A DNA stretch of 64,000 nucleotides, taken from NCBI GenBank assembly GCA_964016885.1, contig OZ024751.1, positions 48,484,001 to 48,548,000 of the forward strand, given 5' to 3'. Origin of the DNA: Eledone cirrhosa (taxonomy: Eukaryota). This document shows positions 19,596 to 56,767 of this stretch, in pieces. Made by a program: the position numbers and the translations under genes. The first letter of the stretch is position 1. Every line of letters begins with the position of its first letter. The notes beneath the pieces were generated by a model. It saw only the letters and a program-made list of their open reading frames with translations. It did no database searches and was not told the origin of the DNA.

Positions 19596-19932
19596 GTTAT
19601 CCGTCGGAACGTTCCTTTCCTCTCCGACGGATAACCTTTTTTCCCGGAACCCCCCCCCCCCCCAGTTGATGGATGCGAATCCGAAATATAGGGATAATTA
19701 AATCTCACCCAAGGTAACTCTATCTCGTGTTATTATTATTATTTTTACGCTCTTTCCTACGTTCGTCTACACACTATACATCTCATTCTACACTCCCTTA
19801 CATCTCTCTCTTCACCACCGGATCCTCTTACCCGGAGAATTACCCATCTGCATTGTTGAGGCTTCCAAAACGACCAAAAGATAATAAATCATATTATTCC
19901 ACAATGCTTCAAGCAAACTTCAATACTCACTT
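19596..19932 (+). mobile_element. non-coding element with 5' hairpin and HHR-like fold, ending in (TA)n
   Basis: Homologous to the reverse complement of 51181-51540; 14-bp hairpin GGTTATCCGTCGGA/TCCGACGGATAACC; HHR-like motif at 19660-19693. Confidence 0.75.
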
Positions 19933-20010
19933 ATATATATATATATTTAAGAGTTAAACCTTGATTAAATCTCAACCATCTACCATGTCAGGGTATGTTA
20001 TGTATCATTT

Positions 20011-20077
20011 TATTTTATCTGATGAGGACGTACTGTGGAACTCAATTCAGTACCTCTGAAATATGTATAATAAAATA
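20011..20077 (+). ncRNA. type I hammerhead ribozyme motif
   Basis: TATTTTAT-CTGATGA-stem II (GTACTG/CAGTAC)-GAAA-TATGTA-TA-ATAAAATA; 8-bp stem I. Confidence 0.8.
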
Positions 20078-21170
20078 TAATTGATCACAAGAATATCTAT
20101 TTTGTTAATATTTGGAATTAATATATATATATATATATATATATATATATATATATATATATATATATATATATATATATATATATATATATATATATAT
20201 ATGGATCCGTGCCTTCAATATTGACGGTGTAACGTTGAATTTAATGTTTGGAAATCAACATTGGTATAACTTATATACGTTTGTCTGTGTGTGTGTTTGA
20301 ATTAATAAACCATTCATGTACCTCCATATTCTATCCAGAATCCGGCTTACCTTTTCTTCTTCATTACACTACTCCTGTTAAATCCTGCCTTCATGGTTTT
20401 ATCACCCGACTCATTACCTCGCATTTCTTTCTCTTACATCATCACTCTACCAAATCCCTCCATAAACCTGTGGTTTATCTGCTTACAGCTACCTTCCAAG
20501 ATCCTAGAATGAAAGGATACAGAATACTTATTGAAATACAATGATGATTAAAGGGGAGACAACTGATTTAGATAAAGATAATATCATATTACAACTTAAG
20601 TTAAGTCATACCGCCTAAAGTTAAAATTGGCCCTCAGCAGTAAATACCTCTATGATTAGTTACATGTTGTCGTCTGTTAATTATAGAATCTTCTCGATAG
20701 ATATATGGCGCCAGCAATCAACAATTGAAAAATGTCGACTGCATATTTCTTCTCATTATTGTTATTGTTATTACTATTCTTCTTATTATTTAATGATATC
20801 AACGTTTTCTCGAAATTGTCAACAGAATCGGAAATTCTACTTATTTGTTGTGCCTTACGCCATGTTATATTGTCAAAAAATCTGAGAAGAACGGATATCA
20901 ATTGCAACAGCACCCCTCCTCTTTAGACTTCGTCATATATACACACACACACACACACACACACATATATATATACATATAACCTCCCCCGTATATATAT
21001 ATATATATATACATACAAATATAAGCACACACGCACACATTTTCTCTTCCTCCCCCCTCTCTCTCTCTCTCACACACACACACATGCTCATATATACAAG
21101 TATCATTTACAGTGAAATCCTCTGTCTTGGCTTATCCTTTAAATTATAGGTATATCTCATTTCTGATACC

Positions 21171-21545
21171 AAAGCCCTCGTCTTGGATGCCACTTGCAGC
21201 GGCACTTTCTCCAGCCGCAACCTGGTGCAGTCTGCGACCAATCCAAGTTCTGCTGCACGTCGGACTGAGGAGGCCAAACTCTCTAAGTACCGGTAGCTCT
21301 CCGACAGGTTCGCGGTCGTGCCCTTGGCAGTGGAGACTTCTCGTGTTCTCGGCCCTCGGGCTACCTCCCTATTCGCCATCATAGGCGGTGAGCTAGCCAG
21401 CCGCAGGTGTGAGCCTCGCGAGTTGGAATGTTACTTCCAGCGCATCTACCTTAGCATCCTCTGGGGAAACGCCTTCTCCATCCTATCCGCCGGGGCTGTG
21501 GGGAGGCCAGCACGTGGGACCCCATTTGTTCACCATACGGATTAA
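21171..21545 (+). pseudogene. CRE-clade non-LTR retrotransposon 3' fragment (restriction-like endonuclease domain)
   Basis: Frame reads KALVLDATCSGTF..AARRTEEAKLSKYR*L..PLAVETSRVLGPRA..EPRE..FQRIYLSILWGNAFSIL, matching the CRE C-terminal pattern (DATC, E..K..KY, PLAVET, QR..GNA); one internal stop; AATAAA near 21570. Confidence 0.8.
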
Positions 21546-53260: not shown

Positions 53261-55802
53261 TTTTAAATAAGGTGAGGATGGTGATTTTGAAACCCCTGCT
53301 TTTAAAAAACAAAATCCGTCAAAGTGTGGTGGAACTCAGGGAGGTTGACGGCCATCCAACGAAATATCGTTTTTAGAGAGAACCCCTAGTCTTCATTAAG
53401 ACATCTCTCTAGAAGAAGGGCATTCTGTTATAAAAGATACGACATCGTTTGCATCGAATGATGTAGACCAGTTCTACCTTTTGGTTAATAGACATTCGAA
53501 GTTCAGAGTGTGTATGTATGTATAATATGCATGTTTATGTGAGTACAGTATGTGTATGTATATGTGTTTGTTCTTTTACTGTTTTAATGTCATATTTCTT
53601 TAGAAAATAAGTTCTACGAGTATTTTATATAGAAACGCATAATTTCTTACATATGCAACTGTATATATATATATATATATATATATATATATATATATAT
53701 ATATATATATATATATATATATATATATATATATATATATATAATATATATGTATGTATATATGTGTATATATAGATATGTATATATATATATATATATA
53801 TATATATATATAATATATATGTATGTATATATGTGTATATATAGATATGTATATATATATATATATATATATATATATATATATATATATATATATATAT
53901 ATATATATACATATATATATGTGTATGTATACATATATGTATATATATATATATATGTATGTTTATATATATATATGTTTATATATATATGTATATATAT
54001 ATATAAACATATATATATATATATATATATATAAACATATATATATATATATATATATATATAAACATATATATATATATATATATATATATATATATAT
54101 ATATATAATGTATACACACACACATATATATATATATATACGTATATATATTCCCTCAACCATATTCTTCGGACGTAATACTTACATACCAGTACACAAG
54201 AATAGTTTTTATATTTTTTATTTCAAAGATAAAAACATAATAGCTTACAAGCTGATCTTTTATAAACCATTTTTTTTCTCCTTACCACAAAAAAAACTGA
54301 AAGACTAATCTATTTTTTTTCTGCTGGCCTGTTGTTATCACAGACTATCACGTGACTCCATTGCTCTGCTTTGAAGTGACATTATTTGGCAGGCAGTCTG
54401 TCTAGTTAAAGAAATCCTCAGTAAGACGTCAGAGTCTCTAAATTTAAGTTCGTGTCATTATTTTGCAAGAAATTGTTATTTTTTTCTCCCCCTCTATCTC
54501 CCCTTTTTACACAATTCTATTTAAATAACAAAGAATCTTAAATTTGATCTTGTTTCTTTCTTTCTCATCTTGTTCTCTCACTCTCGTTCCAAACACACAT
54601 GTACGCGCGCACACACATGTAGAAAGAGAGAGAGAGAGAGAGAGAGAGAGAGAGAGAGAGAGAGAGAGAGAGAGAGAGAGAGAGCGATTGAGAGATTGAG
54701 AGATTGAGAGAGAGAGAGAAAGTCGGGGCCCGACGGCTGAGGTTTTGCCGTTCGACACTCTATCATACTAAGTATAGAGTCCTCAGCTGAATAATGGTTT
54801 TACTTGCTTAAAACTCAAAATCCTGATCTAAAGAGATAGACAGATAAATAGACAGGCAGATAGACAGGCAGATAGACAGACAGATAAATAGATAGATATG
54901 TAGATAGATATATAATAGTTGATAAAATCAGGTAAAATACTTCTGGAGACGAAGATAGAGACACATAGAGAGACTATATTTCCACCTCCCCATATATATA
55001 TATATATATATATATATATATATATATATATATATATATATATATATCGACCCGCTGGAATTCTACTCCTCTCTATATCAACTACGCAGAACTCTCCCCT
55101 TCTCTATATCTACTATTCGGAACTCACTACCTATCTACCTCTCTATATATCACTTAACACCAAACTCTCCCCCTCTCTATATCTACTATAGCAAATTCTC
55201 TCCCATCCCCCTCTATATATCAAACAACACAAGGCTCTCCCCCTCTCTATATCTATATCTATCTCTCCCCTCTGTTTTTCATTACATGTACGTGAATTGT
55301 AGCGCATACAATTTTACAAATAGATGTGTGTTTTGGTATTTTGGGGAGAAAAATATAATTATTGCGGGGTCCATGGCCCCCTGCCCCCCTCCTCCAATTC
55401 TCCCGTCTCTGGATTAGACAGACATTGATCGAATATTGAATATGCCAGTTATTTTTGGTCATCATTCATGTTTGTTATTATCCTGTTGACCAGTCGAGAC
55501 CCTATAATGACCACAGCCCTGTTTATAATGGTCAATGCTATGTTTATAAAGGTAACTTGCTCTGTTCTTCAGGATATTCCTCACCGGAAGATAAAAAGGA
55601 AAGAAATAAAAAAAAGATTTACCGTAAGGGAATTTTCCGCCTAATTTGTTCCTTGCTACAAAGGTGGCTTTCCGGAAAATCATTATATTAAGAGTATACG
55701 CACACAAACACACACATATATATAAATATATATATATATACACATATATATACACACACATACAGACGTACACACACACACCCACACACACACACACACA
55801 CA

Positions 55803-56002
55803 NNNNNNNNNNNNNNNNNNNNNNNNNNNNNNNNNNNNNNNNNNNNNNNNNNNNNNNNNNNNNNNNNNNNNNNNNNNNNNNNNNNNNNNNNNNNNNNNNN
55901 NNNNNNNNNNNNNNNNNNNNNNNNNNNNNNNNNNNNNNNNNNNNNNNNNNNNNNNNNNNNNNNNNNNNNNNNNNNNNNNNNNNNNNNNNNNNNNNNNNNN
56001 NN
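55803..56002. other. assembly gap (200 N)
   Basis: Run of N. Confidence 1.
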
Positions 56003-56237
56003 TGTGTGGGTACGTGTGCGTGGGGTTGGGGGGTGTTAGTGATGTTAGTTGCGTGTGGGGTGGGTGGTGTAAGTGGGTGCGTGTGTTCGTGTGTTTGGGG
56101 TCAGGGGGTATTAGTGAGGTTAGTTGCGGGGTGGTGGGATGGATGTGTGGGGGTGAGAGGTGTGGGGGTGAGGGTTAGTGGTATATATATACACAGGGTT
56201 AGTGGTATATATATATATACACAACCTTAATGAGGTA

Positions 56238-56331
56238 TCCTCTTGATAAGTCGGCAGAACCTCATAAAAACTCTATATCTCTATGATGTAGTGTTTTTGC
56301 ATAATATGCCACGAAACTACGTAGTCGGGAA
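56238..56331 (+). ncRNA. third U3-A8 hammerhead motif, in a separate insertion (56229-56400)
   Basis: TCCTC-TTGATAA-GTCGGCA..TGCCAC-GAAA-CTACGTAG-TC-GGGA; body homologous to 48470-48635. Confidence 0.78.
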
Positions 56332-56767
56332 CTACAGAAGCAGCTTAGGTATGATATATCTTATTACTAATTATATCTAATGTTTCTTCTCTCTTCATAA
56401 TGTGTTATATATATATTTATACTGTTTAAGATAATATGAGTGTTAAACTTTCCGATTGTTGAGAGCAGGGGAGATAAAAAGATGAGTAGGGTAATGGGGT
56501 AGGTAGATAGAAGATATATAGAGATAGATAAATAGAGAGAGAGCAGGGGGGAGGGAGAAAGTGTGCGAGTTTCTCTGAGGGTGAGACAGATTGCCTTACC
56601 TTACTGGGTATTGAAGACTACAGTGTATGTATACAATTAGACTGTTTCTATGGGTTTTTCCTTTGCTGATATTATCTGCGTATCACACCTCATGGCAGAG
56701 ACCTATCTACAAACCCAGGAATAAATAAACAACTAGATATGTATGTAAACATGTGATTGGAATCAGT

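Follow-up and report, generated by a model that had tools for sequence, protein, structure and literature searches.

Hammerhead motifs in TA-rich DNA of Eledone cirrhosa very probably mark truncated ends of Penelope-like elements and gene-less tandem repeats

In their work on Penelope-like elements (PLEs), Craig et al. 2021 described a Hydra clade whose members carry an RW motif, DKT, CxCX5C plus a GIY-YIG domain at the C terminus with CxxC and CxH, have a hammerhead ribozyme in their pseudo-long terminal repeat (pLTR), insert into (TA)n and show an inverted 5'-truncated copy and a one-sided tail; Hydra-1_Obim is listed there for Octopus bimaculoides with a (TA)n preference (PMC8557442). How tandem and inverted ends form and what the hammerheads do are open questions in the PLE field (PMC8557442). 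We analysed 64,000 nucleotides of Eledone cirrhosa (contig OZ024751.1, positions 48,484,001 to 48,548,000), hereafter the window, in which a sequence-only reading had proposed, between 19596 and 56400, a dense set of TA-bounded islands carrying about 20 type I hammerhead motifs, as 3' ends or partners of PLEs. Our analysis indicates that the islands are very probably the 5'-truncated 3' ends of at least eight endonuclease-bearing PLE families, together with pieces of three gene-less tandem repeats, with hammerheads predicted to cut, and likely inserted in TA by Penelope enzymes. The main features are already published for other animals; what is added is scale, a fold-back point that can be mapped, and variants of the hammerhead core.

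The assignment to PLEs comes from longer genome copies, which carry a Penelope-like reverse transcriptase (RT)/GIY-YIG gene upstream of the motif in the families of 12 of the 21 sites, a count that includes 54722, taken as a fragment like family P (below) by the likeness of its tail; six sites lie in tandem units lacking an open reading frame (ORF). In this respect the proposal that the islands are PLE 3' ends or partners was supported. Clade names were assigned from protein motifs alone. Hydra-clade genes lie upstream of the motifs of the 20011 (L292), 31710 (L356), 33108 (L302) and 49092 families (L063 and L115, which span the endonuclease part only) and of family P (L152, L153, L158 and L167). 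The RT motifs RWR and DKT are found in L302 and DKT in L292 and L294, while the CxCX5C linker and the C-terminal GIY-YIG with CxxC and CxH are present in L302, L292, L299 and L356. In the 33108 family, copies are 99-100% identical, the unit measures 4.17 kb, and a single intact frame of 832 residues in L302 holds RWR, DKT, CxCX5C, CxxC and CxH. The layout of endonuclease-bearing PLEs, with pLTRs, an inverted truncated copy and a one-sided tail, was also observed; in L292 it reads inverted pLTR, direct pLTR, ORF and pLTR. All this resembles the Hydra clade as published, with several differences: published Hydra PLEs are mostly below 3 kb with tails of 30-40 nt, whereas here units reach 4.2 kb, with 0.3-1.6 kb of 3' non-coding sequence and tails of about 70-95 nt (PMC8557442). 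Many families, a shared tail hairpin and a family whose half motif has about 48,000 exact matches also set this genome apart.

The window itself has a broken RT/GIY-YIG frame at 26181-28407. In 18 of 19 other genome copies (8 of the 19 being segmental duplicates) the frame continues into the 28425-28790 island, ending at one point, with TA or a tail of about 40 nt after it. This family has a Cys linker and a CCHH motif and is Neptune-like (L301), and the 19660/51433 family, with a Cys linker and a CCHH GIY-YIG after the RT (L300), is Nematis-like. Pfam matched RVT_1 on both L301 and L300, and GIY-YIG on L300 slightly under the cut-off. Neptune and Nematis PLEs likewise have a CX2-5CxxC-type linker, a CCHH endonuclease, a pLTR hammerhead and microsatellite targets (PMC8557442). 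In the 32296 family a GIY-YIG frame was found upstream in 2 of 13 loci, and the family with a UGCGCA stem III has, in one genome copy (L099), a Hydra-type endonuclease upstream. Three further observations concern these elements: an asparagine-rich frame upstream of the Neptune-like RT (L301:1605-2216) is reminiscent of the N-rich inserts of rotifer Penelopes; eight copies of a segmental repeat of about 60 kb (L034-L041; C12, 17.0-17.5 Mb) each hold the same PLE insertion; and L029:250-700 is a tandem chimera in which a Neptune-type hammerhead is joined to a family P tail.

We then considered the motifs. Twenty of the 21 sites parse as type I hammerheads and 14 families were found for the sites. 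A complete core (CUGANGA, or UUGAUAA with the U3-A8 pair, together with GAAA, UH and stems I to III) is present at 14 of the 21 sites (20011+, 22306-, 22486-, 24010+, 28543+, 31710-, 32296-, 34297-, 39994+, 48111-, 48479+, 49045-, 49092+ and 56238+), three of which are of the U3-A8 type; stem I has just 2 bp at 28543 and 39994. Two sites have a U4C core (33108+ and 49528+), two have lost a single core base by decay (35051+, U16.1 to C; 50235-, GAAA to UAAA) and two carry the two-base variant CAGUUGA (19660+ and 51433-). The latter two and 54722 had been called degenerate, which held for 54722 only: there the minus-strand CUGAGGA is the antisense of the tail and a 3' half motif stands alone, whereas CAGUUGA at the other two sites is fixed in the family and not a product of decay. 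At 63671-63713 (+), beyond the range first noted, there is one more type I hammerhead with a complete core, which belongs to the Hydra-type group.

Could such motifs be chance matches in AT-rich repeats? No match was obtained at the gathering score of Rfam, nor any hammerhead model among 150 of the 465 weak Rfam rows, the weak matches mostly pairing microsatellites with microRNA models; this lowers membership in Rfam's own models only. With a strict descriptor, the 25.7 kb of non-microsatellite islands in the region gave 6 matches (CUGANGA) or 7 (CYGANGA), against none in each of 100 dinucleotide shuffles and none in the reversed sequence, a comparison that had been suggested with the original proposal and came out in its favour. 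The entire window gave 8 matches, for a shuffle mean of 0.02 and a maximum of 1, and blind samples of the genome gave 55 matches versus 0-2 per shuffled 790 kb. The shuffles already refute chance, to which, in view also of stem covariation, we give practically no credence: the hammerhead-shaped motifs are confirmed as real.

Covariation was examined in one Hydra-type group of 55 distinct motifs, related sequences included, for which only the core letters and four stem I bases had been required. Stem II positions 2, 3, 5 and 6 are Watson-Crick paired in 91, 96, 76 and 100% of motifs, compared with about 50% after column shuffling, and stem III pair 2-5 in 91%, compared with 64%. Stem III had been described as usually a palindrome; palindromes do occur, but a perfect one is present in only about half of the copies (10 of 20 parsed, 24 of 55 blind genome matches). 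Five palindromic stem III segments form no hairpin as single strands and have predicted duplex energies of -0.8 to -12.9 kcal/mol, values that would fit dimer folding. The motifs mostly point toward TA, as proposed: for 56 strict matches from the window and 60 loci of 10 kb, which are not independent and include tandem arrays, the nearest (TA)5 lies downstream in 44, upstream in 9 and at equal distance in 3, and a (TA)5 is found within 200 nt downstream of 82% of strict matches versus 20% of random positions. In having a short stem I, an additional base ahead of stem II, a stem III that is palindromic and a U3-A8 pair, as in opposite-strand pairs 100-700 bp apart and in being mostly single and tied to truncated PLEs, these motifs are like the minimal hammerheads of metazoan PLEs, which are counted in thousands per genome (PMC4209133); stem II regions here reach 50-90 nt.

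Self-comparison of the region revealed 15 palindromes and several inverted pairs. Many islands are fold-backs in head-to-head arrangement, one end being short and fixed and the other long and tailed; neither these nor the Penelope ORF at 26181-28407 had been mentioned in the sequence-only reading. In 26 palindromes of family P, the arms within a copy differ at 2.5 of 32 nt versus 11.4 for arms of different copies; the copies have their junctions at different points but share a fixed outer end, and TA adjoins the inverted arm in 22 of the 26. These data make it likely that fold-backs arise anew at each insertion. Unfolded P copies have a stem II hairpin of 9 + 7 bp, and 17 of the 26 palindromes span 110-129 nt, which places the turn at about the tip of that hairpin. 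Exact genome matches number 48,134 for the 3' half of the P motif versus 2,428 for the 5' half, palindromes being counted twice and the two patterns perhaps not covering the same subfamilies. That P is a fixed palindromic element without a ribozyme was also considered and ruled out by its unfolded copies and its gene. A tail hairpin, ACUC-N-UGAGURC, was detected in 56 of 123 P copies, 9 of 19 of the 24010 family, 9 of 44 of the 20011 group and 3 of 7 of the 49092 family, versus 6 of 9,093 shuffled windows; the 24010 family, which has it in common with the Hydra families, showed no ORF upstream in 13 loci.

We infer that the first DNA strand folds back at each insertion. The GIY-YIG domain would nick (TA)n and the RT would prime there, beginning at the tailed end; synthesis would usually end early, and the new strand would fold back, in family P mostly at the stem II hairpin tip, copy itself up to the fixed short end and then be linked to TA. 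Tandem transcripts may be cut into single units by the hammerhead, which would often act as a dimer formed through the palindromic stem III. Of 123 P ends, 47 lie 17 nt and 48 lie 97 nt past the predicted cut, and since inserted ends overall run 17-280 nt past it, the template was likely a circularised or an uncut RNA. Of 30 loci inspected, 27 contained the target copy, two showing another copy instead and one having been missed by the anchor; TA is present at both ends of all 27, one having only TATA on the left.

For the Penelopes of the rotifer Adineta, which similarly have head-to-head inverted pLTRs, with palindromes at the junction, and an optional tail, self-priming was inferred, on an antisense transcript (PMC3846280). 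Palindromes could form here in that manner, or after insertion, by TA-driven fold-back and repair. Inverted copies of flanks that are not element sequence would suit such mechanisms: about 550 bp of flank are inverted and duplicated around the very young 33108 insertion (window 32436-33665), the duplicate comprising CA and TA tracts and two unique blocks of 126 bp that are 99.2% identical, and 7 of 55 inverted repeats found in 664 kb are pairs with unique arms. However, 33 of these 55 have element arms, and in each family the inverted arm has a fixed outer end that lacks a tail, whereas the junction is variable, so that we consider these alternatives unlikely and keep fold-back of the first strand as our preferred reading; the inverted flank at 32436-33665 would possibly reflect a template jump onto host DNA. 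Adineta Penelopes are of low copy number, whereas tens of thousands of copies here map the fold-back point, mostly to the hammerhead stem II (PMC3846280).

The 22306, 34297 and 48111 families, to which 6 of the 21 sites belong, consist of ORF-less units in tandem, about 470, 534 and 595 bp long. Their GC content is 35-42%, their longest M-started frame has 41-99 codons, and each repeat bears one type I hammerhead; folded in silico as circles, they give z of -5.5 to -9.2. No ORF-bearing relative was found among the loci compared. Metazoan non-LTR retrozymes (LTR, long terminal repeat), which coexist with PLEs, are likewise tandem units of low GC content that lack an ORF and carry a single type I hammerhead apiece (PMC7229834). 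The 470-595-bp units exceed the RNAs of 170-400 nt first described (PMC7229834) and lie within the 51-972 bp of a recent preprint (bioRxiv 10.64898/2026.07.22.740005); unlike described retrozymes, they form head-to-head arrays inside (TA)n and are known here from DNA alone. Such units might instead be satellites produced from a PLE end by local unequal crossover. Local amplification has been raised for animal retrozymes (bioRxiv 10.64898/2026.07.22.740005), and the 32296 pLTR, which occurs as a 184-bp tandem, shows no unusual folding (z -0.9). Against this, the three families are dispersed over many contigs with 96-99% identity, TA at their ends and the head-to-head layout of PLE ends, and we regard a satellite origin as quite improbable. 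The units are likely retrozyme-like and ride on Penelope elements, whose enzymes would copy gene-less units of 310-595 bp in trans; the 310-bp kind was observed 50 kb downstream of the window as an ORF-less hammerhead array inside TA, in which seven units lie on one strand and four have the opposite orientation (L086:8200-10000, L087:1-1600).

Are the hammerheads needed at all? The elements could move without cleavage, the hammerheads being passengers or relics with a conserved fold that acts as a signal for protein binding or for fold-back. Canonical hammerheads are lacking in Naiad PLEs, which spread nonetheless (PMC8557442); inserted ends run beyond the cut site, and two young families have altered cores. 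The Nematis-like family (98-99% identity) fits a minimal hammerhead, with a 3-bp stem I, an extra U, a GGAU/AUCC stem II and a UAUA stem III, at every position except U4A and A6U. CAGUUGA is found in 31 of 32 close copies. A pattern search gave at least 2,876 matches, of whose first 100 this core is present in 99 and none is canonical; the two window copies, 74% alike overall, have it in common. No core changed at both positions 4 and 6 appears in the accessible part of Cervera and de la Pena 2014 (PMC4209133), and this core also distinguishes the family from published Nematis PLEs; among the genome loci examined, U at position 6 did not turn up in any independent family. Either this is a new active core or the family spreads without cutting. 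The youngest Hydra family (33108) has U4C, reported to lower activity in vitro, and a Hydra-type family has the U4A core CAGAAGA with otherwise regular stems (L018:1300-1480; L250). On the other side, unrelated families have retained the core letters, the U3-A8 swap, an unconstrained position 7 and stem covariation, which is what selection for catalysis would predict. In P, each of the four bases occurs at position 7, and the neighbouring positions do not vary; U3-A8 recurs in P and, among the matches listed, in nearly all copies of the 48111 family (at least three families in all), and it is published for Schistosoma PLEs (PMC4209133) and in Perreault et al. (PMC3088659). C3 stands with A8 in 14 of 100 listed P matches. 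We consider passenger hammerheads possible but less probable than hammerheads that cut.

Several points weigh against our interpretation as a whole. Pairing is not in excess at stem II positions 1 and 4 or at stem III pair 3-4, and related sequences inflate the pairing counted at the others. Most single motifs do not fold to a three-way junction as monomers, and folding z is below -3 in just 2 of 13. Minimal PLE hammerheads cut weakly (PMC4209133), and one of nine Xenopus retrozyme dimers cleaved in vitro (bioRxiv 10.64898/2026.07.22.740005); the CAGUUGA core is predicted to be weak, pairwise mutagenesis of another hammerhead having given low activity for changes at positions 4/6 (PMC9901934). 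Gene links come from 1-7 loci per family, and 22486, 24010 and 49528 have no ORF link among the genome copies examined, 22486 having no relative among the loci compared. The central breaks of long palindromes could also arise after insertion. Finally, the Hydra tail hairpin is absent from the three tandem families, so that Penelope enzymes are only putative partners for them.

A dense set of motifs had been noted at this locus, but the window is not special: the 200 kb around it hold 36 strict matches (11 from one array), and 79 blind 10-kb stretches, taken at round coordinates rather than drawn at random, hold 55 in 31 stretches, with 0, 0, 0, 0, 2 and 0 in six shuffles. Scaled to the 3.0-Gb genome, at about 70 strict motifs per Mb, this amounts to some 2.1x10^5 motifs (bootstrap 1.4-2.8x10^5), U3-A8, weak-stem and half motifs being left out. 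A load estimated at about 200,000 is unusually high: by other descriptors, 126,247 motifs were counted in axolotl, whose genome is far larger, and about 5,000 in mussel (PMC7229834). About 8% of a 400-kb blind sample (31.4 kb) matches hammerhead-bearing ends. In a search that left most subscription papers outside, we found no paper counting cephalopod hammerheads; a recent annotation of Octopus vulgaris gives PLEs 6.83%, and the words ribozyme and hammerhead are absent from its supplement and from two of the three parts of its text.

Repeated insertion had also been proposed to have built the TA-rich landscape. In support, 30 of 85 (TA)5+ arrays in the region touch a recognised end, as do 153 of 443 TA arrays in the 400 kb of blind samples; since the element library is incomplete, such figures are lower bounds. 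But the arrays concerned hold only 1,695 of 6,324 TA bases (27%), and none of the longest tracts adjoins such an end. Behind one element end that has been duplicated, TA length varies from 5 to 31 units, which points to slippage, and some elements have short internal TA runs that could seed targets. Paired flanks were found elsewhere for 8 of 362 insertion blocks, several of them self-matches and all already TA-bearing; target-site duplications are masked by TA. Insertion into pre-existing TA is the simpler reading, and the building of TA by insertion is unproven.

Features of the region in window coordinates (cut positions are predicted; L numbers denote genome loci)
Feature	Position	Strand	Remarks
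Old 3' end, Nematis-like PLE	19610..19931	+	CAGUUGA core 19663, cut 19690; L102, L300
3' end, Hydra-clade PLE	19935..20121	+	core 20019, cut 20069; L292
Partial unit, ORF-less ~470-bp tandem family, internal TA tract	22010..22402	-	core 22342, cut 22312; L253-L258
Type I hammerhead, 89-nt stem II region	22440..22620	-	core 22597, cut 22490
Hammerhead, abundant 24010 family	24009..24077	+	core 24015, cut 24053
Fold-back 3' end, Hydra-clade family P	24094..24296	-	U3-A8 3' half per arm, plus tail
5'-truncated Neptune-like PLE	26181..28790	+	RT + GIY-YIG frame 26181-28407 with stops and frameshift; ~310-bp deletion after frame; 3'-end hammerhead core 28547, cut 28580
Fold-back 3' end, UGCGCA stem III family	28873..29067	+	3' half only
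Fold-back fragment, 34297 tandem family	31046..31292	.	
3' end, Hydra-clade PLE	31604..32165	-	core 31773, cut 31716; L356
3' end, GIY-YIG PLE, minimal hammerhead	32217..32435	-	core 32327, cut 32300; L202, L206
3' end, very young Hydra-clade PLE	32990..33193	+	U4C core 33112, cut 33150; L302
Family P fold-back with tail	33883..34075	+	
Head-to-head insertion, ORF-less ~534-bp tandem family	34124..35189	.	cores 34373(-), 35056(+); L297
Fold-back, 24010 family (3' halves), with tail	35210..35381	+	
Solo 3' end, Neptune-like PLE	39876..40224	+	core 39998, cut 40031
Minimal fold-back (28-nt arms) with tail, sister Neptune-like family	40263..40377	+	L098, L100
Family P fold-back without tail	44964..45064	.	
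Head-to-head insertion, ORF-less ~595-bp tandem family	48041..48960	.	U3-A8 cores 48195(-), 48484(+); L298
Fold-back 3' end, Hydra-type PLE	49015..49227	.	cores 49078(-), 49096(+); L063, L115
Family P fold-back with tail	49238..49440	+	
Hammerhead, U4C core, 81-nt stem II region	49480..49865	+	core 49537, cut 49636; L057, L303
Decayed relative of 20011	50200..50354	-	core 50290
3' end, Nematis-like PLE	51180..51525	-	CAGUUGA core 51465, cut 51436
Decayed P-like fragment, not a whole hammerhead	54715..54830	+	inverted 3' half motif plus tail
Fragment, ~595-bp tandem family	56225..56403	+	U3-A8 core 56243, cut 56326

Besides these features, fold-back islands in TA at 23065-23345, 23650-23998, 33764-33870 and 50706-51051, most of them with relatives elsewhere and none with an assigned hammerhead or gene, are probably further PLE ends. 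A degraded non-LTR retroelement, presumably L1/Tx1-like, occupies 15896-19480 (-); it matches RVT_1 and zf-RVT and contains a 1.2-kb stretch duplicated internally at 78%. A repeat resembling a short interspersed nuclear element (SINE) is present at 1-128, 4113-4499, 10154-10326, 47579-47760 and 63319-63979; it has 48 matches in the 400 kb of blind samples, and PLE ends are often found at its TA tail. At 47661-47976 the 3' end of a SINE-like repeat occurs twice, in opposite orientations, on either side of a 145-bp island with only the 5' half of a hammerhead core. Minisatellites of 56/107 bp (10389-11462) and 73 bp (38399-39051) contain no strict hammerhead match.

Beyond what is published for other animals, we put forward tentatively, as a set that is more doubtful than likely, that this is the densest hammerhead load for which we could find a report, that CAGUUGA is active with U4 and A6 traded, that stem II doubles as a self-priming hairpin and that the tail hairpin is a signal for the Hydra enzyme. 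In the genome of E. cirrhosa, young insertions number tens of thousands; both of their ends are fixed and their fold-back point can be mapped. Together with an intact Hydra frame that has identical copies, and with natural core variants (U3-A8, U4C, U4A and CAGUUGA), these make the questions of how PLE ends form and what their hammerheads do directly testable.

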